Assembly: GCA_019659125.1 (NCBI GenBank) | Contig: JAIFVX010000001.1 | Location: 118,097-182,096 of the forward strand | Source of the DNA: Candidatus Pacearchaeota archaeon | GTDB taxonomy: Archaea > Nanobdellota > Nanobdellia > Pacearchaeales > GW2011-AR1 | Direction of reading: 5' to 3' | Length of the DNA: 64,000 nt | Part shown: positions 1,397-44,720 of the stretch, piece after piece | Position numbering within the stretch: position 1 is the first letter of the stretch | Layout: the number at the start of each line of letters is the position of its first letter | Translations under genes and position numbers: made by a program | The notes under the pieces: model-generated | What the model saw: the letters and a program-made list of their open reading frames with translations, nothing else | The model's database searches: none | What the model was told of the DNA's origin: nothing

Positions 1397-1477
1397 TATG
1401 ACCTCCGTATGATTTAAAATACCTCATAGGTTTATCAAGAGTTGAACTGATGCTTTATAAATCTTTAGTTCTGCCAA

Positions 1478-2189: not shown

Positions 2190-3167
2190 TTATCTCCAGG
2201 TCACATGCACTTCATCGGTTCTTTCTCGTGGTTTGATGTCAATATCTTTCTCGTGTATGCCTGCATTAAAGAGAAGCTCTCCCGTATAGGCTATCATTGC
2301 GCCATTATCAACTAACAAAGACTTTTCAGGGCAATAGAATTTCGCTTTCCTCTCACTGCACATAATCCTGCACATCTCCTGAAATCGTGCATTACACGCC
2401 ACTCCTCCTCCAAGCACCAGTTCCTTCTTCCCCGTATGTGCTAAAGCTCGCTCAGCAGCTTCCACAAGCATGGCGAATGCAGTTTCCTGTAATGAATAGC
2501 TTAAATCAGAAACTGCCATTCCTTTATCAAACAATTGCTGAATCTTTGTCTGCATGCCTGAAAATGAAACATCCATGCCCTTAATCGCATAGGGCAACTC
2601 AATATACTTTCCTCCTTTTGCATGGATCTCGACCTGTGGCCCTCCAGGAAATCCCATTCCCATGTATCGTGCAACCTTATCAATAAAGTTGCCAACACCT
2701 ATATCCAATGTCTCTCCAAATACCCGATACATACCTCCTGCATAGGCGATGATCTGTGTGTTTGCCCCTGAAGCATAAAGCAAGACAGGATCGGATGCTC
2801 CAACACTTCTTCCTATCTCGAGATGTGCAATACAATGATTAACTGGAATAAGGGGGACGTTAAGTTCTCTGGCTTTTCTTCTTGCAAACTCAAGGCCTAC
2901 AAGCAAACACGGAGCCAGTCCAGGAGCATTTGAAACAGCGATGCCTTTGATTGCTTTCTCACTAATATTCGCAGTTTCAAGAGCCTTCACGTAAAGAGAT
3001 TCTGAAACTGCCTTGTGATGGTGAGCACTTTCCATAGGGATAATCCCTCCTTTTTGAGTCTTATACATGTCTCGTACATTAGCAAGGATATTTCCCTTGC
3101 TGGCAATGCCAACTCCAAATGTATGTGCAGTAGATTCTATTCCTAAGATCATGATAATAGACCACAA
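2190..3167 (-). CDS. kae1: tRNA N6-adenosine threonylcarbamoyltransferase Kae1
   Basis: ILGIESTAHTFGVGIA N-terminus, HCIAHLEIG, and SGGVACN-like GGGVACNARFQEM. No Bud32 fusion. The true start may be the internal MILGIE. Confidence 0.9.
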   Translation of the reverse strand: MWSIIMILGIESTAHTFGVGIASKGNILANVRDMYKTQKGGIIPMESAHHHKAVSESLYVKALETANISEKAIKGIAVSNAPGLAPCLLVGLEFARRKARELNVPLIPVNHCIAHLEIGRSVGASDPVLLYASGANTQIIAYAGGMYRVFGETLDIGVGNFIDKVARYMGMGFPGGPQVEIHAKGGKYIELPYAIKGMDVSFSGMQTKIQQLFDKGMAVSDLSYSLQETAFAMLVEAAERALAHTGKKELVLGGGVACNARFQEMCRIMCSERKAKFYCPEKSLLVDNGAMIAYTGELLFNAGIHEKDIDIKPRERTDEVHVTWR

Positions 3168-3440
3168 ATAACCTTATAAACAATACGCACTATATACTAG
3201 AGTGTTCTATCGACATTATTCTAACCCTCCTGAAGGAAACTATAAGCCGCATGCAAGCGTACCAAGAGGTCATGAACGACGATTTTACAAGACAAGAGAA
3301 GAAGTAAGGAGTCCTACACAAAAAATATTGAGAATGTACGAACACCACAAAAGAAGAGACATTCCCTCATGTTACCGAGGAGAGGGATAAAAACCAAAAT
3401 AAAGTGTTGAATATAAAAAATAATGTGAAGTAATTAAAAA

Positions 3441-3566
3441 TTACTTCTTTTTCTTTTTTCTGCCGCCACGAGCCATCTTTGTCTCCCACACGTTTCCTTT
3501 GGCGTCAACATAGTAGAGGTGACCGTGCTTTCTCTTGACAGCTAGCTTCAAAATTACTTTACCCAT
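3441..3566 (-). CDS. small basic protein, 41 aa (MGKVILKLAVKRKHGHLYYVDAKGNVWETKMARGGRKKKKK)
   Basis: Below the ORF-track size cut-off and found by hand. ATG at 3566, TAA at 3441-3443, GGAGGT 4 nt upstream. It fills an otherwise empty intergenic gap. Family not recognised with certainty. Confidence 0.5.
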   Translation of the reverse strand: MGKVILKLAVKRKHGHLYYVDAKGNVWETKMARGGRKKKKK

Positions 3567-3570
3567 ATCT

Positions 3571-3577
3571 ACCTCCT
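3571..3577 (-). promoter_or_regulatory. Shine-Dalgarno (AGGAGGT) for the 41-aa ORF
   Basis: Plus-strand acctcct at 3571-3577 is AGGAGGT on the minus strand, 4 nt upstream of the ATG at 3566. Confidence 0.5.
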
Positions 3578-3596
3578 TTTTGAATTAAAATAAATT

Positions 3597-3962
3597 CTAA
3601 CTATTTCTAATCATAGGTCTATTTAAACCTTTTCTTTTCCCGACGATAAATTTAATTATTTTTTCATTGTTCTTATTGATAGGTATCTCGACAAGTCTTC
3701 TGAAAAGATTCCTAGGAACAATGCGAAACACAAAGGGATCGACGAGCTTCCATTCAAGGATGTTGTTTTTGTCGTCGAGCCAGACTGCCAGGAATGGAAA
3801 AAATACGAACCACGACGTTATTGACGCCTTGGAATCTCTTGAAAAATCAAAGAGAAGATTTTCTGTTGAGGGAGTCTTAAACATGAGCCCTGTCGCTCTC
3901 CCAAGAAAGGAGAGCTTTTTCACCTGCACCTCAACATATTTTTTATCATAGTATAACTTCAT
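3597..3962 (-). CDS. DUF192-like protein
   Basis: 121 aa. GRATGLMFKT..LLFDF......SWFVFFPFLAVWLDDKNNILE resembles the GLM..R / L.F.F / M..t..PLD..fld pattern of DUF192 (COG1430). Confidence 0.5.
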   Translation of the reverse strand: MKLYYDKKYVEVQVKKLSFLGRATGLMFKTPSTENLLFDFSRDSKASITSWFVFFPFLAVWLDDKNNILEWKLVDPFVFRIVPRNLFRRLVEIPINKNNEKIIKFIVGKRKGLNRPMIRNS

Positions 3963-4035
3963 AAATTGTGAAAGGGAGGATTGTTTTTAATTCTACCGAG
4001 AGAAGATTTTTATACCTGCTTCCATTCAGACGCCT

Positions 4036-4617
4036 ATGGAACTTGACCTGACTTTATTGATGTGGATCGTCGCAGGAGTTGTCGTGCTTCTATGCCTTGT
4101 TCTTATTCTCATTCAGAGACGAATGAGCCCTCCAGACCAGCCTCTGGTTGATAAAAGTATGATCTTCAGGAAAGAAATAGAAGCTATTCAAGCATCACAA
4201 AAACCTCAAGAGATGATTAATCTTTTCAATAAATTAGTGCAGGAATATCTAAAAGAAACCTATAACGTACAAACAAATGATTATGCCGAGCTCTCGCATA
4301 TTCTCTATAACCGAGAAAATCATAGCCTTTCTGATTTTTGCAAAAAAATGATACGTGCATTGTATTCAGGAGAGGAATTGCAACGAGAACAGGTTGAAGC
4401 ACTTATGCAAGAGTTTCTCGCAATCATCAATGGGAATGAGAAACCGGCGCAGTCCACTGTTGTGCAAAAACAACCAGTTGCTCAAGATGCTAAGAAAACA
4501 CCGGAAACTAAAGAGCCTCCGGGACATGGCCCTATTGAAAGTATTGATATGCTTGAAAGAATTGAAAGCAAGATCCCTAGTAAGCTTCCTGTTAACGCAG
4601 CGCATCACTTAATCTAA
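4036..4617 (+). CDS. hypothetical single-pass membrane protein
   Basis: N-terminal TM (LMWIVAGVVVLLCLVLILI) followed by a helical, charged C-terminal region. Convergent with the vWA gene. Confidence 0.45.
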   Translation: MELDLTLLMWIVAGVVVLLCLVLILIQRRMSPPDQPLVDKSMIFRKEIEAIQASQKPQEMINLFNKLVQEYLKETYNVQTNDYAELSHILYNRENHSLSDFCKKMIRALYSGEELQREQVEALMQEFLAIINGNEKPAQSTVVQKQPVAQDAKKTPETKEPPGHGPIESIDMLERIESKIPSKLPVNAAHHLI

Positions 4618-5534
4618 GGAAATACTCTATAACGCGTATTGAACAGCAAATATTCAAATATAAAGATGAGAAGTGCTGCAAGAGCACAATATCCTGACGC
4701 ATCCAGAGAAACTCGCCGTACCTTTAAATTCTTTATCTGATCAAGAGATTGTGCAAGCACTGCAGCAGACTCTGCATGGAATGCTTTTCCCCCTGTCAAA
4801 AATGAGATTGACTCGAGCGAATCAAGCTCTACTTTTGAGATTCCATAGGTAGTTTCCCCTCCCGTTTCAGTCCCGAGCGCAATGGTATGGACAAGCACTG
4901 AATTCTTTGTTGCATAATCAATAGCCTCCTGAATATTACCTACATTGAATCTTCCATCGCTCAATAAAATAATTGCCCGATAATCCTCGGGCCGCAATAG
5001 ATTGACCGCGGTAACAATCGCCTCGTATAAGTCAGTTCCGCCAATAGAACTTAATTGAACATTCCCCAGTGACTGACGAAGAAGGTCTTTATTGCTTGTT
5101 ATGTCCTGCTCAATAAGAGTGGATCCTGAAAATGAAACAATTCCTACCCTCGTTCCTGCAGGATATGATCCAATAAATGACGAAAGACTTGTCTTAGCAG
5201 CCTCAAATCGACTAGGAAGGATATCATTTGCTTCCATACTTCGTGAGGAGTCAACTGCAATAACTAACGATGAAGAGCTTGTAAGGGCATCGTATTGGAC
5301 GATAGTACCTGCAATTGATAGAACAAGAAAGAGACAGATAGAAATGCTACATGAAAGGATAACAATATTCTTCGAATATAAGTCTATTCCCTTGATGCGG
5401 GCAATAGCATCAAAATTAGAGAACTGCAAGGCAGTCTTCCTCTTGCTCTTGATGGATATAAAATGGATGAGGATAATAACTGGTATAAAGAAAAGGAATA
5501 AAAGATTGAGAGGATGTGTAAAAGTGACAATCAT
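4614..5534 (-). CDS. membrane-anchored von Willebrand factor A protein (BatA-like)
   Basis: N-terminal TMs, then a MIDAS-type VIAVDSSRSM (DxSxS) and ILLSDG, then a C-terminal TM. Its start overlaps the DUF58 stop. Confidence 0.85.
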   Translation of the reverse strand: MIVTFTHPLNLLFLFFIPVIILIHFISIKSKRKTALQFSNFDAIARIKGIDLYSKNIVILSCSISICLFLVLSIAGTIVQYDALTSSSSLVIAVDSSRSMEANDILPSRFEAAKTSLSSFIGSYPAGTRVGIVSFSGSTLIEQDITSNKDLLRQSLGNVQLSSIGGTDLYEAIVTAVNLLRPEDYRAIILLSDGRFNVGNIQEAIDYATKNSVLVHTIALGTETGGETTYGISKVELDSLESISFLTGGKAFHAESAAVLAQSLDQIKNLKVRRVSLDASGYCALAALLIFIFEYLLFNTRYRVFP

Positions 5535-6430
5535 AGGAAGACAGGGCTCCTCTTGTCCCGAGCTCTCGCATTGAGGAATTCAGCAAGTGGGGGAACAAAT
5601 GATGACGCCGTACTTAATTCAAGCACATCGATGTCAGCTTTCTGGAAACTGTCTTTGACAAATTTCTCCTGTTCAGCAGCATAATGATGATAGGCATTCT
5701 TAGCCTCTGAAGGATCAATTAACATCTGATATCCTGATTGAGGGTCTTCAATGACAAACTCTCCTGATATAGGGGGAAGTTCCTTGTCTCGAGGGTCCTT
5801 GACCATCATGGCAACAGTCTCAAACTTGCTCCCTACAAACTTCAGCAAATTAACATCCCTTTCCTTAAGCCGTATAAAATCTGAAATGATGAAGACTGCA
5901 CTGACGGATGTATCGACAGAGTCAACAAGATAGGAAAGGATCTTGCCCATGTCGCATCCTCCTCCATACACGGAGGGATTTGAAACTGCATCCACAAAAA
6001 GATCAAGCTGACTCATTCCCTTAGCAGGTGACAAGACGTGAGATACCTTATCGTTGAAAAGAATAAGTCCCAGTCTATCATCCGAATTGAGAATAAGATT
6101 GCCCAGGGCGGAAGCAAGTTCCGCACTATATTCACACTTCAATTTTTCAGTCGATCCAAAGATCATATGTTCTCCTACGTCAATGACGAACATCACTCCT
6201 ATGTTCTTTTCTTCCTTGTATTGTTTTACCAGCAGCTTGTTAGTCCGTGTGCTCGCCTTCCAGTCAATGATTGCTGCATCATCTCCTGGAGAATATATTC
6301 GGTAACTGTCAAATTCCAAACCCTTTCCCCGTAAAATAGTGTGATAAAGCTTAGTATGCAGTTCCAATTCACGAACCGAGGCCTGAAGCTCAGCAACTCT
6401 ACTTGGAATATCAAGATTAAGCTTCCCCAT
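5531..6430 (-). CDS. DUF58 domain protein (MoxR-associated)
   Basis: GKGLEFDSYRIYSPGDDAAIIDWKASTRTNKLLVKQYKEEKN is the hallmark DUF58 block. Its start overlaps the MoxR stop. Confidence 0.85.
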   Translation of the reverse strand: MGKLNLDIPSRVAELQASVRELELHTKLYHTILRGKGLEFDSYRIYSPGDDAAIIDWKASTRTNKLLVKQYKEEKNIGVMFVIDVGEHMIFGSTEKLKCEYSAELASALGNLILNSDDRLGLILFNDKVSHVLSPAKGMSQLDLFVDAVSNPSVYGGGCDMGKILSYLVDSVDTSVSAVFIISDFIRLKERDVNLLKFVGSKFETVAMMVKDPRDKELPPISGEFVIEDPQSGYQMLIDPSEAKNAYHHYAAEQEKFVKDSFQKADIDVLELSTASSFVPPLAEFLNARARDKRSPVFL

Positions 6431-7419
6431 TATGGAACCTCAACAGTAGCGAGAAGATCATGGATGATAGCATCAGTAGTGACTCCTTCGGCATGTGCCC
6501 GATATGACAAGATCAGTCTATGTCGCAAGGCATCATAAGCAACAGTCTTGACATCCTGGGGCGTAACATAATTTCGCCCACGCAAAAGCGCTTCAGCCTT
6601 GGAGCCAATGTACAAAGCAATGGTCGCTCGAGGGGATGCCCCCAGTTGGATATACTGCCCATGATGGAAATCCTTCTTTCTTGTCATGGAAACAAGAGCG
6701 AGAATATATTTCTTGACCTTTTCATCAAGATAGATCTGATGTGTCAACGCTTGCATCTGCACGATCATCTTAGGCGTGATAATCGGCTTGATGGCAAATT
6801 CCTCAAACCTCTTAAAGGTAGCATTCTCTTCCATAATCATGGCTTCATGCTCCTCATCAGGATATCCTAACATTACTTTGAATAAGAATCTGTCCAATTG
6901 CGCTTCAGGAAGTGAATAGACTCCTTCATGTTCTAAAGGATTCTGGTTTGCCATAACGAAGAAAGGAGCAGGCAAGGGGAATGTCTCAGTCCCAATCGTC
7001 ACTTGCTTCTCCTGCATGGCTTCAATAAGCGCTGACTGTGTCTTAGGAGGGCTTCTATTGATTTCATCAGCAATGATGAACTGGGCAAAGATAGGTCCTT
7101 TCACTACCTCGAATCCTTTCCGAGGATCGTAGGTCGTAAGGCCAACAATGTCCGTAGGTAGCAAATCTACCGTAAATTGAATTCTCTTTGACGTGCACCC
7201 TGATACTCGTGCAAGTGTCTTGATAAGAAGTGTCTTTGCAATACCCGGAACTCCTTCAATGAGGACATGCCCATCGCATAACATTGCCCGAAGTAAGGAA
7301 TCTACTGTATCACTATGCCCGAAGAATACTTTGGATACTTCCTCTCGCACACGGGCAAGTACTTTGGAAAGCTCGTCCACTTGAGCACTGCTGAGCTTGA
7401 CTGTAGAATCACGATTCAT
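6430..7419 (-). CDS. MoxR-family AAA+ ATPase
   Basis: Walker A GVPGIAKT, Walker B IIADEINR, and the LGASPRA segment typical of the MoxR/AAA_3 family. Confidence 0.9.
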   Translation of the reverse strand: MNRDSTVKLSSAQVDELSKVLARVREEVSKVFFGHSDTVDSLLRAMLCDGHVLIEGVPGIAKTLLIKTLARVSGCTSKRIQFTVDLLPTDIVGLTTYDPRKGFEVVKGPIFAQFIIADEINRSPPKTQSALIEAMQEKQVTIGTETFPLPAPFFVMANQNPLEHEGVYSLPEAQLDRFLFKVMLGYPDEEHEAMIMEENATFKRFEEFAIKPIITPKMIVQMQALTHQIYLDEKVKKYILALVSMTRKKDFHHGQYIQLGASPRATIALYIGSKAEALLRGRNYVTPQDVKTVAYDALRHRLILSYRAHAEGVTTDAIIHDLLATVEVP

Positions 7420-7450
7420 CTCTTTTCTTGTCCCTCAAGGGTGATGAGCA

Positions 7451-10234
7451 TTATAAACCTTTCTCACTGCTATCCGCGAATTGCTGGAATTTCCTGAATC
7501 TCCATCGCTGGTAGAAATAGAACCCTGCTCCAATCACCAGTGTGCCCATAACTGCTCCTCCAACCCATACGAAAAAGGCATTCTGGGACAGGATACTCTT
7601 TCCCGTAATGTTAGATCTCTGGGAGATAGCCCTCTTGCATGACTCGACAGCTTCATCCAGCTTCGCATCACCTTCCTCAGACTTTCCCTGTGCAATGAGA
7701 CTCTTAGCCTCATCAAGAGTTTCCTTGATCTCCAGACACTCAGGGTTCTGAGCGATCAATGCATCCGTAAGGAGCACTTTATCTTGGATCTTTGTCCCCT
7801 GACCTACAGTAAGCAATATCTTGCCTGAGTCCTGATAAGCAGGATTCTGTACCGTAGCATTCAGAAGGATCTCGTATACACCATCCTCTTCCGTATTGAC
7901 ATCTACGATCAATGTAATATTTTTAGAGGCACCGATAGGAAGAATATTCAAGAATGAATTATCGAATGAGGCAAGCAAATCCTTCCGTAAAGCACCATCC
8001 TTAGATACGGTAGCCCTCACTACAATACCTCGAAGGTCAAGTGCCCCTCTATTAGCCAAAGTAATGGGAAGGATAATCTTCTTGTTCTTCTCAGTTGATA
8101 AAGGATTAGGAAGCAGCAGTTTCAAAAGAATAGGAGTTGATTTAGCAAAATCTCCCGATCCTCCGCCGCCTCCACTATTAGGAATTGGTACATTAGGATC
8201 AGTCGATATAACACCTACTCTGTAGTTGCTCCAGCCAGTTACATTAAAAATGACAGTACCTGCATTCAGGGAAGTAAAGTTATAGCAATAAGTAGCGTTA
8301 CAAGCAATATTATTCTTGAATATCAAAGGAGCGTCAAAGTTTGTAGGGAGGCCATAAAACGTTACATTAGCACTTTGGTTAAGACCCAAGCGATTATCAT
8401 TAACTGTGACCTTATCATTTTCTATCTTTATATCATCAGTTAAGTTATCTGCGCTCTCATTAATTGGCTGCAAAAACCTGATTTCCCCATACTGCGTGTT
8501 CTTGAAATTAACAAATCCCCCAACTCCAGAAAACGAATAACTTTCTACATAACCATCAGTAATAGATAACTGATTAGAAGAATTTAAGTTTAAAACCTGT
8601 AGAGCAGTATCAAAACCCTCATTCCCGCCGATAATCGTGTTATTAAACAGAATATTTCCAGAGGTGTTATTAAGATAAACTCCACCTTCCGAATTATTGG
8701 TTATTATGGAGGAGCTAAGAGTGATATTGGAACTATCTTCTATATAAAAACCAAGATGTTCCAAATTACTGATGAACATAGAGGAAAAATTATTGTTATT
8801 AGAATTATCGATGACAAGCACACCAAAGGTGTTGCGTCCAGCTGTAGTAATACTGCAATTCTGAATGCGATTGTTACCGCTACCTGAAAGTTCAAAACTT
8901 CCCATGCCATCAGAATAGGAACCGATACTTCTACCAGATCCTTCTCCACTTGAACCGATAGTACAATGGGCAATAGTGTTGTTAGAGCTACCTTGCAAAT
9001 AAATGGGGGGATATGCCGTTGTATCTCCAAAATCAGCAGTCACATACTGAAAGACATTGTTTTTACTGTTGACAACGCTTAAGCCTGCTCCAACCTGAAG
9101 AGACGCAACTGTCAAAGAAGTAAATGTATTATTGTCGCTTGAATCGAGATTAACTCTTCCCAAGCTTAGATTAGTAAAGCTATTATTATATTGATTAGTT
9201 AGATCTAAATTTCCATCCGATATTACAGAAATAACTCGGTTATGATTGCCAGTAACAGATAAAAGAGAACTACCTTGCTCTCTAATAAGTGTATCAAGGA
9301 GATTATTAGAGTCAAGAGAAACATACCCGGAAATGTTATAGAGATTATTATTAGATCCTACATTCATTCCGGGACTACTAACTGTAAGGTTGATCATTGT
9401 ATCGTTGATGTTAAAGAAATCAGTAGAAAATGCGAGGTTAGCTATCGTTAAATCTGTAAAATTATTGTTATGACCACTATCGTTAATGTCATTGATAACT
9501 AGAAACTTAGCAAAGATATTATAAGCACTTGCCGAATCGAGAATGATAGAATCTAGAGAACTAGGAGAAAGAATATCGCCAGTGTTATTAGCATCACGAT
9601 TAGTAAAGAAATTATTGGAACTAGAGATCAGTGATATAAGAGGTGACTGCATTGAAGAAAAATTATTTTGGGTGCTTGAATTCAATAAAATTTTTCCAGC
9701 AGAAGAAGTAGTTATATTATACATAGTATTATTATGGCTCCCTAAGAAATAAAAACTATAATTGTCTTGACTCGCATTAATTTTAAGAAATGTGATATTC
9801 GAACTATTTTGGATATAAATGCCGTAACCAGTTTTATTGACAGTGATATTGATAATGCGGGAATTAGTTACATTAAGGAGATTAAGGCCATAACCGGTTG
9901 TAAGAGCCATACTTAGATTACAATTCCTGATGGTAACATTATTAGCATGAGTCACATTGATGGCAGGTCTATTAAGAGTACTGTTAGCGATGATGAAAGA
10001 CCGACAGTTCAATTCAACATTCGAGGCATTAATAAGAAAACATCCTGTAGAATTGACAAGAGACCGGTTAAGGTTCTGCGTCATTGTATAGTTGCCTGCC
10101 GTATCTAACGTCTGACAGGTTGAAACGTCTCCTGGAGTCGAAGCGCTTACCAATGAAAAAGTATCCAACAATAAGAGTACTGCTAATATCCCTGCCAGTA
10201 TCCAAAATAAAAGAAAAATATTCTTAGACGTCAC
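7451..10234 (-). CDS. membrane-anchored surface protein 1: signal peptide, long right-handed beta-helix (PbH1/NosD-like) region, two beta-sandwich-like modules, Cys-bracketed helical hairpin, C-terminal TM
   Basis: 927 aa with a GTG start. Has a signal peptide, many repeats of the type NNVTIRNC/SNITF.., a GGGGGSG linker, a CARDB-like block PITLANRGALDLRGIVVRATV..ITLIVDVNTEEDGVYEILLNATV, then TM and YQRWRF. Very dense in N-x-S/T sequons. Confidence 0.75.
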   Translation of the reverse strand: MTSKNIFLLFWILAGILAVLLLLDTFSLVSASTPGDVSTCQTLDTAGNYTMTQNLNRSLVNSTGCFLINASNVELNCRSFIIANSTLNRPAINVTHANNVTIRNCNLSMALTTGYGLNLLNVTNSRIINITVNKTGYGIYIQNSSNITFLKINASQDNYSFYFLGSHNNTMYNITTSSAGKILLNSSTQNNFSSMQSPLISLISSSNNFFTNRDANNTGDILSPSSLDSIILDSASAYNIFAKFLVINDINDSGHNNNFTDLTIANLAFSTDFFNINDTMINLTVSSPGMNVGSNNNLYNISGYVSLDSNNLLDTLIREQGSSLLSVTGNHNRVISVISDGNLDLTNQYNNSFTNLSLGRVNLDSSDNNTFTSLTVASLQVGAGLSVVNSKNNVFQYVTADFGDTTAYPPIYLQGSSNNTIAHCTIGSSGEGSGRSIGSYSDGMGSFELSGSGNNRIQNCSITTAGRNTFGVLVIDNSNNNNFSSMFISNLEHLGFYIEDSSNITLSSSIITNNSEGGVYLNNTSGNILFNNTIIGGNEGFDTALQVLNLNSSNQLSITDGYVESYSFSGVGGFVNFKNTQYGEIRFLQPINESADNLTDDIKIENDKVTVNDNRLGLNQSANVTFYGLPTNFDAPLIFKNNIACNATYCYNFTSLNAGTVIFNVTGWSNYRVGVISTDPNVPIPNSGGGGGSGDFAKSTPILLKLLLPNPLSTEKNKKIILPITLANRGALDLRGIVVRATVSKDGALRKDLLASFDNSFLNILPIGASKNITLIVDVNTEEDGVYEILLNATVQNPAYQDSGKILLTVGQGTKIQDKVLLTDALIAQNPECLEIKETLDEAKSLIAQGKSEEGDAKLDEAVESCKRAISQRSNITGKSILSQNAFFVWVGGAVMGTLVIGAGFYFYQRWRFRKFQQFADSSEKGL

Positions 10235-40709: not shown

Positions 40710-41082
40710 ACGTAATAACTCTATATTTATCTCTTCCTAATCGATTATAGACTTGTGCCAATGTTTTAGCAAAGGGTACAAACTCTGGAGGCCACGCATA
40801 GATGTTATGTGTCTCAAAATAAACATCCATTGCAGGCGCGGAATTTACCGTGAAATGCTCTGCAAAGGGAGATATGTGCTTGTAGTTTTGGCTTTCACCA
40901 GAATTGATGGCAACAAATCGCTCAAGATCATCTACAGGTTTTCCTTCGTTATAATCATCATATAAAGCATCAGCGATTGCCATAAGCCTATGAACATGAC
41001 TCGTAAGATTTCCGTTATGCTCTAACACTTCTACCATCCCTCGTAAAATCAAAGCATACTTAAAAACATTATTGTTATACAC
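40675..41082 (-). CDS. hypothetical protein translationally coupled to scpA
   Basis: 135 aa. Its start codon overlaps the scpA stop at 41082. No ScpB-like winged-helix pattern is recognisable by eye. Confidence 0.45.
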   Translation of the reverse strand: MYNNNVFKYALILRGMVEVLEHNGNLTSHVHRLMAIADALYDDYNEGKPVDDLERFVAINSGESQNYKHISPFAEHFTVNSAPAMDVYFETHNIYAWPPEFVPFAKTLAQVYNRLGRDKYRVITSIRAPSEAASR

Positions 41083-41966
41083 TATTCACTCAAATTGCTA
41101 AGTGTGTTGCCAAAATCATTCTCAACTTCTTCATACTCTTCCTTAAGCTCTTCAGGAAGTGTGGCATTAAACTCTTTCATTGCCTCTTCAACCTCTTTCC
41201 GCATCTCTTCAAGCAAGGGAGCATTTTCCTTCTCATATAATGTCTTGAGCCAGATCCATATTTCCTCCAAATGACCTTCCTGTTCAACCCAAACCTTATG
41301 TTGATTATCAAGATGCAGCAAAGGAACAAACGTTGCAATCCTGTCTTCCATAGATTCTCCAGCAAGCTCTGAGAATGCAAGTTTGCTGGTTCTCTCAGAA
41401 AAGATAGTTTTCAGCTTCGAGTACACTGCATGAATCTGGTCCTTAATGTTTATCTTCTGCTTTGGCAAAGACAGTGCAGTCTCTAGCTCTTGCTGTTTTG
41501 CAACAACAACTCTCTTGATTCTTCGTGTCTCTGTTTGCAACGCATTGCCTAGAGCCCTCATCAGTTCATGAAGAGTTACCTTTTTGAATCGAGGCAGGGG
41601 AGTTCTCGGGACAAGTCCGGGGATCTCATCCTCAAGTTCAATCCTTTCTTGCACATACTTTTTCTCCTCTTTCCTTCCAAACAGAATAGCATCAAGCTCT
41701 TGAAGGTCTTCTTCAAGCAAGATTTCAGACTTCATCCGCAAAAGAAGTGCCGCGGCAAGCAAGACTTTTGAAGAAACGAAGAAATTTGCCTCTTCAAGTT
41801 CCCGGACTTTGACCAAGTACTTCTGAGAAAGCACGCTAAGGTCAATGTCCCATGGATCAAGCTGTTCGCTATTGATCAAATCATAGATCAAGGACTGCCA
41901 ACTGAGTTTATCACCAAATAAAAGGCCATGAATTTGCTCCTGACCTACTTTTTCTTTTCCTTCCAT
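41082..41966 (-). CDS. scpA: segregation and condensation protein A (kleisin)
   Basis: N-terminus SLIYDLINSEQLDPWDIDLSVLSQKYLVKVRELEEANFFVSSKVLLAAALLLRMKSEILL is the ScpA signature block. Confidence 0.8.
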   Translation of the reverse strand: MEGKEKVGQEQIHGLLFGDKLSWQSLIYDLINSEQLDPWDIDLSVLSQKYLVKVRELEEANFFVSSKVLLAAALLLRMKSEILLEEDLQELDAILFGRKEEKKYVQERIELEDEIPGLVPRTPLPRFKKVTLHELMRALGNALQTETRRIKRVVVAKQQELETALSLPKQKINIKDQIHAVYSKLKTIFSERTSKLAFSELAGESMEDRIATFVPLLHLDNQHKVWVEQEGHLEEIWIWLKTLYEKENAPLLEEMRKEVEEAMKEFNATLPEELKEEYEEVENDFGNTLSNLSE

Positions 41967-42086
41967 ATACTATGGAAGAACATTAGTTTATATGTTTTCT
42001 CTAAAATAACAACTTAACCGAACTTCTCATCGTCTTCCCTTATAATCTTCATGTTCTCATTGGTAAGTTACAACAAAAACGAAAGA

Positions 42087-42094
42087 TTTAAATA
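42087..42094 (+). promoter_or_regulatory. TATA box (TTTAAATA) upstream of candidate small RNA 1
   Basis: Context aaagaTTTAAATAtag, with 20 nt to the shared ATCACCTCTTT start motif at 42115. Confidence 0.5.
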
Positions 42095-42114
42095 TAGCCA
42101 GTTTATAGATATTT

Positions 42115-42186
42115 ATCACCTCTTTTTTCCCGGAAGAGGACGTTTAGTCTTTCTTTTTTTGACGGATTAAACCTCCTCTTCACGGG
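42115..42186 (+). ncRNA. candidate structured small RNA 1 (unknown family)
   Basis: Begins ATCACCTCTTT. CCTCTT (42119-24) or CCTCTTCACGGG (42175-86) can each pair with CCCGGAAGAGG (42129-39). Contains internal T-runs. The ends are not determined. Confidence 0.3.
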
Positions 42187-42200
42187 TTTATATGCAAATC

Positions 42201-42208
42201 TTTAAATA
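42201..42208 (+). promoter_or_regulatory. TATA box (TTTAAATA) upstream of candidate small RNA 2
   Basis: Context aaatcTTTAAATAgtg, with 21 nt to ATCACCTCTTT at 42230. Same layout as 42087-42094. Confidence 0.5.
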
Positions 42209-42229
42209 GTGGGAGTGTCTTAAGATACT

Positions 42230-42331
42230 ATCACCTCTTTAGAGATCGTGAAAGATTGAAGATTCTTCAAAATTCTCCAAACAAGACCTTATGAAGGCAG
42301 GAGAAGATATCCGAATCAGGAAAGAGGTGAT
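42230..42331 (+). ncRNA. candidate structured small RNA 2 (unknown family, ~102 nt)
   Basis: An 11-bp closing helix, ATCACCTCTTT (42230-40) with AAAGAGGTGAT (42321-31), encloses hairpins TTGAA-gattc-TTCAA and TTCTCC..(CCTT-atg-AAGG)..GGAGAA. Confidence 0.4.
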
Positions 42332-42382
42332 GGATTCCTATTCTTTAGATAATCATTTAAACTGATTTCTATCCATAATAAA

Positions 42383-42943
42383 ATGGATCTTTACCTAGCA
42401 CGACATACCCAATCCATGGGAAATGTTGCTAATATCATAGATGACAATTCAATAAATTCTTCTGATAAGAACGGATTGTCTGATTTAGGAAAAGAACAAG
42501 CCAAAGAGCTTGCCATGAAGCTAGAAAAATATAGATTTGACATAATAGTCATTAGTAAGTTCAAAAGAACCAAGGAAACAATTGATCCTTACGTTAGAAA
42601 TCATAAAGTCAAAGTGGTTGTTTCCGATGTGATCGGAGAAAGAAATGCAGGTATATTTGCAGGAAAACCAAAAACTGCGATGAAAGACTATTGTCTAGCT
42701 AACAGTATAACTGATCGTGTATCATGGAGACCAGACAAAGGAGAGTCACTTCTCGAAGTTTACCAAAGAGCAAAGAAATTCATAAGTTATCTAAAAACTA
42801 ACTTTGGTAATAAGTCCGTACTAGTTGTTGGACATACTAATTTTTTACGATGTTTGGACATAGCAATAAGAAATTCAGACATAATGGATTTTTATTCAGG
42901 TAAAGAACTTGAACACGGAGAAATTAAGCACTACAAACTTTAA
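42383..42943 (+). CDS. histidine phosphatase family protein (phosphoglycerate mutase-like)
   Basis: N-terminus LYLARHTQS (RHG-type motif) and C-terminal VVGHTNFLR. Confidence 0.75.
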   Translation: MDLYLARHTQSMGNVANIIDDNSINSSDKNGLSDLGKEQAKELAMKLEKYRFDIIVISKFKRTKETIDPYVRNHKVKVVVSDVIGERNAGIFAGKPKTAMKDYCLANSITDRVSWRPDKGESLLEVYQRAKKFISYLKTNFGNKSVLVVGHTNFLRCLDIAIRNSDIMDFYSGKELEHGEIKHYKL

Positions 42944-44342: not shown

Positions 44343-44720
44343 ATGAGTAAAAGATTGTTTGTTGGTAACCTACCGTTCAGCTTGTCCAAAGAGGACCTTC
44401 TAAAGGAATTTTCACACTATGGAAAAGTAGAGGAAGCGGTTATCATCACTAATAAATTCTCGGGAAGGTCAAAAGGCTTCGGTTTTGTAACTTTAGCTAA
44501 TGACGCAGATGCTGAAAAGGCCATCCAAGAGATGAATGGTAAGGATGTAGCTGGAAGACCATTAGTAGTCAACGAAGCAAAACCTATGACTGAAGATCGC
44601 CCACCACGAGAGAACAGGGGCGGATTCAGGAACGGCGGTGGCGGAGGCTTCAGAGGAGGCCATGGTGGCGGCAGAGGTGGATTCCGAGACAACAAGAGCC
44701 GAGATTCCGAAGACTTCTAA
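44343..44720 (+). CDS. RRM-type RNA-binding protein with RGG/Gly-rich tail
   Basis: RNP-2 LFVGNL, RNP-1 KGFGFVTL, and tail RGGFRNGGGGGFRGGHGGGRGGFRD. Confidence 0.85.
   Translation: MSKRLFVGNLPFSLSKEDLLKEFSHYGKVEEAVIITNKFSGRSKGFGFVTLANDADAEKAIQEMNGKDVAGRPLVVNEAKPMTEDRPPRENRGGFRNGGGGGFRGGHGGGRGGFRDNKSRDSEDF

Follow-up and report, generated by a model that had tools for sequence, protein, structure and literature searches.

A conserved, uncatalogued candidate small-RNA gene upstream of scpA in DPANN archaea with a 5' tail matching the 16S rRNA 3' end

Several bacterial small RNAs, among them RybB and OmrA/B, act in trans through a seed located at their 5' end, and C/U-rich small RNAs such as LhrC from Listeria and sRNA162 from Methanosarcina mazei mask ribosome-binding sites. 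The 3' end of archaeal 16S rRNA (...GGAUCACCUCCU) is in turn bound by the archaeal Dim2 protein. As for DPANN archaea, to our knowledge almost no non-coding RNAs have been described beyond tRNA, rRNA, SRP RNA and RNase P RNA, and little is known about regulation in these organisms. The small RNA predicted at the locus analyzed here resembles RybB, OmrA/B, LhrC and sRNA162 in its layout, as it combines a conserved single-stranded 5' seed complementary to Shine-Dalgarno (SD)-type sequences with a stable hairpin and a U tail. However, it has no sequence relation to them and no known chaperone, its hosts hardly use SD sequences, and its class-wide conservation is unusual for such regulators. The archaeal 16S rRNA 3' end, for its part, is identical to the small RNA over the 8-mer AUCACCUC, both stretches being single-stranded, pyrimidine-rich and placed beside a helix; in the small RNA, however, the copy lies at the 5' end, continues with U5-6 instead of CU, and belongs to an RNA of approximately 75 nt with its own promoter. 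The intact 16S 3' end of this genome is found elsewhere, separate from the small RNA. A literature search retrieved no description of such an RNA.

The analysis started from a stretch of 64,000 nucleotides (hereafter, the window), in which the scpA gene (41082-41966, minus strand, Pfam SMC_ScpA) and a histidine phosphatase gene (42383-42943, plus strand, Pfam His_Phos_1, with its ATG at 42383) are separated by a spacer of 416 bp (41967-42382). The histidine phosphatase gene is an insertion seen in this genus only. An earlier note on this DNA had described two units of the same layout in the spacer, each with a TATA box followed by a shared motif, and its coordinates proved exact: the TATA box TTTAAATA is found at 42087-42094 and 42201-42208, and plus-strand copies of the 11-mer ATCACCTCTTT at 42115-42125 and 42230-42240, the gap between box and motif being 20 nt in unit 1 and 21 nt in unit 2. 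The likeness it drew to tRNA genes also holds, with 21-23 nt between the TATA box and the mature 5' end in the three tRNA genes of the window. In addition, the exact reverse complement of the 11-mer, AAAGAGGTGAT, is located at 42321-42331. Across the whole genome (808,890 bp in five contigs), the 11-mer occurs three times, always within the scpA/phosphatase spacer, so that the window holds no exact copies beyond those, whereas the reversed 11-mer pattern, used as a control, gave two genome matches scattered outside the spacer. A palindromic TTTAAA core, read from the sequence at 42354-42361, can be assigned to both strands. On the plus strand, it is likely the TATA box of a leaderless histidine-phosphatase mRNA; on the minus strand, it reads TTTAAAT(G) from 42361 to 42354 and stands 22 nt upstream of the minus-strand motif copy, so that the locus reads alike from either end.

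The suggestion that neither unit fits a known RNA family was borne out by comparison with Rfam 15, as the whole window gave no match at the gathering score except the three tRNAs, and the best hit for positions 41900-42450 at a relaxed E-value threshold had E = 1.3. The genes for 5S rRNA, SRP RNA and RNase P RNA are all located elsewhere in the genome, which rules out each of these identities for the spacer.

Small RNA 1, the product predicted for unit 1 (42114-42189, plus strand), was delimited by a promoter, a 5' tail, a hairpin and a UUU end. The promoter (42075-42094, plus strand) consists of a BRE-like CGAAAG element (42080-42085) followed by the first TATA box, and the block ACAACAAAACCGAAAGaTTTAaATA is found at a fixed distance upstream of all homologues displayed. 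The 28 homologues extracted share one arrangement, in which this block is followed by approximately 21 nt of free sequence and then by TATCACCTCTTTTT-N-CCC...GGGTTT. The 5' tail UAUCACCUCUUUUUU (42114-42128, plus strand) is predicted to be single-stranded: columns 4-9 and 11-14 are invariant in the 28 homologues, and (U)AUCACCUCUUUU(U) is unpaired in every one of their minimum-energy folds. Indeed, when each homologue is folded alone, the same shape is obtained in 28/28 cases, i.e., a long hairpin preceded by 14 unpaired nucleotides. The earlier proposal of a switch in unit 1, with AAGAGG pairing alternatively to an upstream or a downstream arm, is therefore disfavoured by the folds and was rejected; it finds no comparative support either, because the tail never changes while the candidate arm does. 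Moreover, the invariant tail UAUCACCUCUUUUU contains the 8-mer AUCACCUC, and since the 16S rRNA of this genome ends in ...GGATCACCTCCTAA, the 8-mer is common to the tail and the 16S 3' end; what had been noted as a resemblance to the anti-SD sequence is thus an identity over eight nucleotides.

The long hairpin of small RNA 1 (42129-42189, plus strand) has approximately 20 bp, is closed by CCC/GGG, and comprises P1 (CCCG/CGGG), P2, P3 and a U-rich loop, with UUU at its end. For the window copy, the fold has an energy of -32 kcal/mol (z-score of -6.48), accounts for 79% of the ensemble and leaves the tail unpaired, and the covariance model R1 scores 54.8 bits in the window with E = 5e-11, E-values of such home-made models being rough. 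In the R1 alignment, which contains 27 distinct sequences, 92.7% of the cells are paired, versus 33-61% in slid controls, and 13/17 pairs carry compensatory changes, i.e., changes on both sides; these pair counts come from an alignment fitted to the model itself, and since the genomes are related (and mostly incomplete MAGs), they overstate independence. The covariation score was reached by none of 500 shuffles. Furthermore, on the promoter's strand there are 39 G-U pairs versus 12 A-C mismatches, an excess that fits transcription from that strand. Covariation in relatives, named in the earlier note as a check, is therefore found for unit 1, as it is for the second module described below. Judged by these comparisons, small RNA 1 is a strongly conserved, predicted small-RNA gene with its own promoter.

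The ends of its transcript are inferred, with a start at approximately 42115-42118. The U run following the hairpin is only 2-4 nt long in the cellular copies (3 nt in the window), so that both the 3' end of small RNA 1 and read-through beyond it are guesses. Other functions for unit 1 were considered and rejected. An intrinsic terminator or attenuator, for which at least five U would be expected, was discarded on account of the 3-nt U run, of a bacterial-style terminator scan that returned none in 41950-42400, and of downstream genes that differ between genomes. A leader or riboswitch of the histidine phosphatase gene was ruled out, given that this gene is an insertion seen in the genus only and that the downstream genes vary. 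Likewise, a leaderless micro-ORF starting from AUC was ruled out by the invariance at the nucleotide level, by frame shifts between homologues and by covariation of the RNA type.

We then focused on the distribution of the family. A DNA search with the spacer found a match in 35/41 genomes (40 relatives plus this one), nearly always to the unit 1 part only. Model R1 matched 45/151 genomes sampled from the class, including all 17 genomes of its own family. Hairpins in the other families are short and often have a UUCG loop, and both the tail and the CCCAG...CCAGGGUUU base are retained. The strict pattern ATCACCTCTTTT-N0-2-CCC was present in 204/301 genomes, against a single match in 301 for the reversed control pattern, in a phylum sample in which every genome is listed as one class (Pace-, Woese- and Nanoarchaeota-labelled relatives). 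The gene neighborhood is conserved as well: of 51 scpA-anchored loci, from relatives that were found through ScpA and are labelled Candidatus Pacearchaeota, Candidatus Woesearchaeota or Nanoarchaeota MAGs, 47 have the RNA gene divergently oriented upstream of scpA, and the opposite flank is occupied by the rpoE-spt4-rps24e-rps27ae operon, usually convergent with the RNA gene, except in one family, in which the RNA gene is co-directional and follows rps27ae. Overall, the small RNA 1 family is widespread in DPANN archaea and uncatalogued, with no entry in Rfam 15.

A search of the genome for further units starting with the motif, as proposed in the earlier note, found one copy with a variant tail; no exact 11-mer exists beyond the spacer. 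This second copy of small RNA 1 lies on contig C1 at 490353-490428 (search match C1:490316-490447). Its tail reads UUGCACCUCUUUUU, and the flank following its hairpin, TATA box included, is the same as in the window locus; this post-hairpin stretch with the second TATA box is common to the C1 paralogue and to the same-genus genome G001, which has the same second copy (C37:1639-1763). In another family (f36), small RNAs occur as tandem pairs 51-108 nt apart, as in G358 (C15:8585 and 8677) and G363 (C4:36023 and 36096). A different small, conserved hairpin was observed downstream of the RNA locus in several genera (loci L007, L017, L126, L129, L134 and L135); it reads CCGG-UCUAAAUU-CCGG, is followed by a CACGA/U-run, and shows compensatory changes in its stem (CCCG/CGGG and CUGG/CCAG).

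Copies were also found in viral sequences. Thirteen IMG/VR contigs contain the motif, and approximately five of them have the full unit of promoter, tail and hairpin with no cellular neighbours. One of these, IMGVR_UViG_3300035698_006764 (L145), has the motif at 1410-1427 (plus strand) between a TATA box of archaeal type and a short hairpin that ends in a U7 terminator, and its ORFs at 2934-8764 encode a large terminase, a portal protein with a Mu-F domain and a SU10-type capsid protein, as in a head-tailed virus. Full units were also seen on the IMG/VR contigs L139, L142, L146 and L147.

The second half of the spacer agrees only in part with what the earlier note had envisaged, namely two paralogous small RNAs. 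Both units do correspond to structured RNA, and unit 1 is well described as an independent gene; unit 2, in turn, owes its promoter and motif copy (42201-42240, plus strand) to this genus, and its strand is only probable. The second TATA box (42201-42208) stands 21 nt upstream of the second motif copy, an exact one (42230-42240), and this upstream copy of the tail was detected only in this genome and in G001, and not in the other genomes with the structured part of unit 2. In the DNA search, only G001 matched the whole of unit 2. A weaker search followed by a second covariance model, R2, found its core, hereafter module 2, to be homologous in 16/151 genomes of the family and in 13/51 scpA loci, always 2-90 nt downstream of small RNA 1. 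Module 2 is a nested stem at 42261-42317, probably of the plus strand, made of P1 (42261-42265/42313-42317), P2 (42273-42278/42300-42305) and P3 (42287-42290/42294-42297). P1 is formed by GAUUC/GAAUC, and the internal-loop sequences UUCAAA and UAUCC (plus strand) are invariant. Among 25 distinct sequences, 87.7% of the cells are paired, versus 36-53% in slid controls, and 11/17 pairs show changes on both sides, again in an alignment fitted to its own model. The covariation thus supports a single nested stem, P1-P2-P3, and not the three internal hairpins drawn earlier for unit 2; the hairpin UUGAAGAUUCUUCAA, which appears in the single-sequence fold of unit 2, is genus-specific and competes with P1. 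On this comparative evidence, module 2 appears to be a real, uncatalogued structured RNA part, limited to a subclade to which this genome belongs.

Directly beyond module 2 lies a complement of the tail. This anti-tail, AAAGAGGUGAU (42321-42331, plus strand), is an SD-like sequence that forms the 3' arm of an 11-bp closing helix with the second motif copy as its 5' arm. The helix, as previously proposed, is present in the single-sequence fold of 42230-42331, for which the z-score is only -2.35, and a tail complement of -11.8 kcal/mol or better follows module 2 in 20/24 relatives. Apart from antisense-to-self, nowhere in the genome is the tail of small RNA 1 better complemented than by window positions 42319-42332, at -18.3 kcal/mol and with 14 contiguous pairs. 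The anti-tail drifts and the tail is invariant, as expected for a pairing partner; the complementarity between tail and anti-tail is itself conserved. Compared with the family in general, this locus has three additions: module 2 with its covarying pairs, the conserved anti-tail and, in this genus only, a further promoter with its own tail copy.

Taken together, we lean on balance towards a model in which an uncatalogued small RNA uses its tail as a seed for SD-like sequences, with module 2 and the anti-tail as its partner. The strong BRE/TATA promoter would start transcription at approximately 42115-42118, giving an RNA made of a free 5' tail of 13-15 nt (UAUCACCUCUUUUU), a long hairpin closed by CCC/GGG and a short U run, with the hairpin sequence free to vary provided that pairing is retained. 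In most genomes with module 2, read-through from this first promoter could yield a long form comprising tail, hairpin, linker, module 2 and anti-tail, the two ends of which could pair into a terminal helix. This genus has gained another promoter and another tail copy, so that unit 2 (42230-42331) can be an RNA of its own, approximately 102 nt long and closed by the 11-bp helix; the outline given in the earlier note is therefore probably right, for this genus. The tail would act as a seed pairing with purine-rich, SD-like sequences (...AAGAGGUGAU...), thereby competing with the 30S subunit at a few leadered genes, and the anti-tail beside module 2 would serve as a partner, either built in or nearby, to sequester or titrate the tail. 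Pairing of the tail with SD-like sequences is our best guess, and the conserved anti-tail is the sole direct sign that the natural ligand of the tail may be an RNA of the AAGAGGUGAU type. Read-through into module 2, pairing in trans and an effect on translation are all steps that we infer.

We then looked at the sequences that such a seed could meet. The SD 8-mer GAGGTGAT has 19 copies in this genome; in nearly all of the 151 class genomes its frequency does not exceed that of the reversed control, and its enrichment showed no relation to the presence of the RNA across them. In these 151 genomes, translation seems overwhelmingly leaderless or SD-independent, and yet the anti-SD tail of 16S rRNA is intact. 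Given this low use of SD sequences, a global competitor would have few targets, and a role based on base pairing would be limited to a small set of genes, either leadered or internal to operons, a few such genes being present. Scanning for complementarity to the tail revealed a handful of SD sites at -14 to -16 kcal/mol, the best site being the neighbouring anti-tail, and identified no conserved mRNA target; for the tail-complementary sites upstream of rpl15e and at C4:7632 no clear meaning was found. Against 16S, partial 23S and 5S rRNA, SRP RNA, RNase P RNA and 35 tRNAs, the best value for the tail was -12.3 kcal/mol, equal to the mean of shuffled tails.

A few observations were made along the way on contig C4 and on the rRNA genes. 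The stretch C4:7560-7700 (L116, 1080-1200) has a strong BRE/TATA promoter followed by a small hairpin with the purine-rich loop GAAGAGAGGUGAAAAA, which can form 12 contiguous pairs with the tail, and Rfam has no match here; this hairpin lies upstream of a second promoter and of a gene with a signal-peptide-like start. As for the rRNA genes (C4:69102-70662 and C3/C5), the 23S gene is only partly assembled at a contig end, and its model match contains a gap that suggests an insertion, and the 16S gene stands alone on a contig of 1.7 kb, with a long processing stem in its flanks.

The proposed model reads module 2 from the plus strand, which is probably correct. When five clearly misaligned cells are left out, the wobble count for the plus strand is approximately 12 G-U versus approximately 3 A-C; the stabilities of the two strands are too close (-14.3 versus -13.8 kcal/mol) to tell them apart. 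A different arrangement, which we regard as doubtful, would make module 2 a separate small RNA of the minus strand, running from 42331 to approximately 42256, convergent with small RNA 1 and with a tail copy of its own, so that two RNAs would share one 5' module. Several features are in line with it: most copies of module 2, when read from the minus strand, start with AUCACCUCUU; the internal loop on that strand is a classic run of G.A, G.A, A.G and U.U pairs (CGGAUA/UUGAAG); in several genomes 4-5 U (T runs) come right after P1; and TTTAAAT lies 22 nt upstream in the window. Nevertheless, the mismatches on the minus strand are mostly A-C (approximately 12) with few G-U (3), and the intermediates between A-U and G-C seen at one P1 pair are A-C on that strand. 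Moreover, the TATA-like sequences found on the minus side in relatives lie at distances that vary from 10 to 30 nt and lack a BRE, as opposed to the rigid promoter of small RNA 1. The supposed second tail is free to vary, or absent altogether, in genomes with an invariant first tail, a behaviour more in keeping with a pairing partner. The minus-strand reading also brings to mind box C/D sRNAs and K-turn RNAs, as G.A, A.G and U.U pairs lie by the terminal stem (GGAUA versus UUGA) in a manner reminiscent of C/D boxes. However, module 2 lacks RUGAUGA and CUGA boxes, a 3-nt bulge and C'/D' boxes, its loop is symmetric, and the likelier strand is the other one; a box C/D identity was rejected, since only GGAUA/UUGA is present on the minus strand, with neither a second box pair nor an Rfam C/D match.

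A further question is what the tail of small RNA 1 binds. Its invariance, the association of the gene with genes for ribosomal proteins and the copies in viruses are compatible both with seed pairing and with a tail that acts as a protein-binding mimic of the 16S 3' end (...GAUCACCUCC), binding or titrating a factor that normally recognizes that end, with the KH protein Dim2/Pno1, the endonuclease Nob1 or a 16S-tail nuclease as candidates, and serving viruses as a decoy. Mimicry would account for the 8-nt identity with 16S rRNA and for an absolute invariance beyond the need of a seed for variable mRNA sites, and it agrees with the scarcity of SD sites in these genomes, with the position of the RNA gene next to ribosomal-protein genes and with the presence of the small RNA in a virus. 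No protein partner was identified for this reading, however, and the occurrence of the sole candidate tested, a nearby RRM protein, does not follow that of the RNA. Because of the conserved anti-tail beside module 2, which points to RNA-RNA pairing, seed pairing is ranked above mimicry, and we consider the latter unlikely. Far less probable still is an element acting at the level of DNA or transcription, such as a start-site operator with a terminator or attenuator hairpin for scpA or the neighbouring operon, or a loading site for SMC-ScpA. The tight linkage to scpA (47/51 loci), the position of the motif exactly at the predicted start site, and an RNA that consists of little beyond a short tail, a hairpin and a U run would all be explained in this way, but the bias towards G-U over A-C is strand-specific, which indicates that RNA is under selection, and 14 bases invariant across the class are far above what operators usually retain. 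In addition, the family is found away from scpA too, as a second copy in this genome, as tandem copies in other families and in a virus, and in one family the gene is co-directional after rps27ae. Seed pairing thus remains the reading that we prefer for the tail.

The RRM-domain protein just mentioned, which has a Gly/Arg tail (window 44343-44720), is hardly found in the rest of the class and occupies unlinked positions in other genomes. It was discarded as a partner of the RNA because only 9/17 genomes of the family encode it and several other RNA-bearing families lack it altogether.

DPANN genomes are tiny, and the RNA is kept in approximately two thirds of the sampled class genomes. It is linked to genes for ribosomal proteins and RNA polymerase, it has been copied by a virus, and its invariant end is the sequence with which the ribosome docks mRNA. 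As far as can be read from sequence, the RNA is a strong candidate for a central factor of translation or ribosome biology that has so far gone undescribed. The tail/anti-tail pair provides a concrete hypothesis that can be addressed by mutation, and the two covariance models make the family searchable. A bolder and more tentative idea, which we put forward with rather low confidence, is that the RNA may be a free-standing, trans-acting copy of the anti-SD tail, with which DPANN archaea and their viruses would choose leadered mRNAs for the 30S subunit or decoy a 16S 3'-end factor, the anti-tail module being an off switch in some lineages. If true, translation initiation would be subject to a new level of control in organisms whose translation is mostly leaderless.
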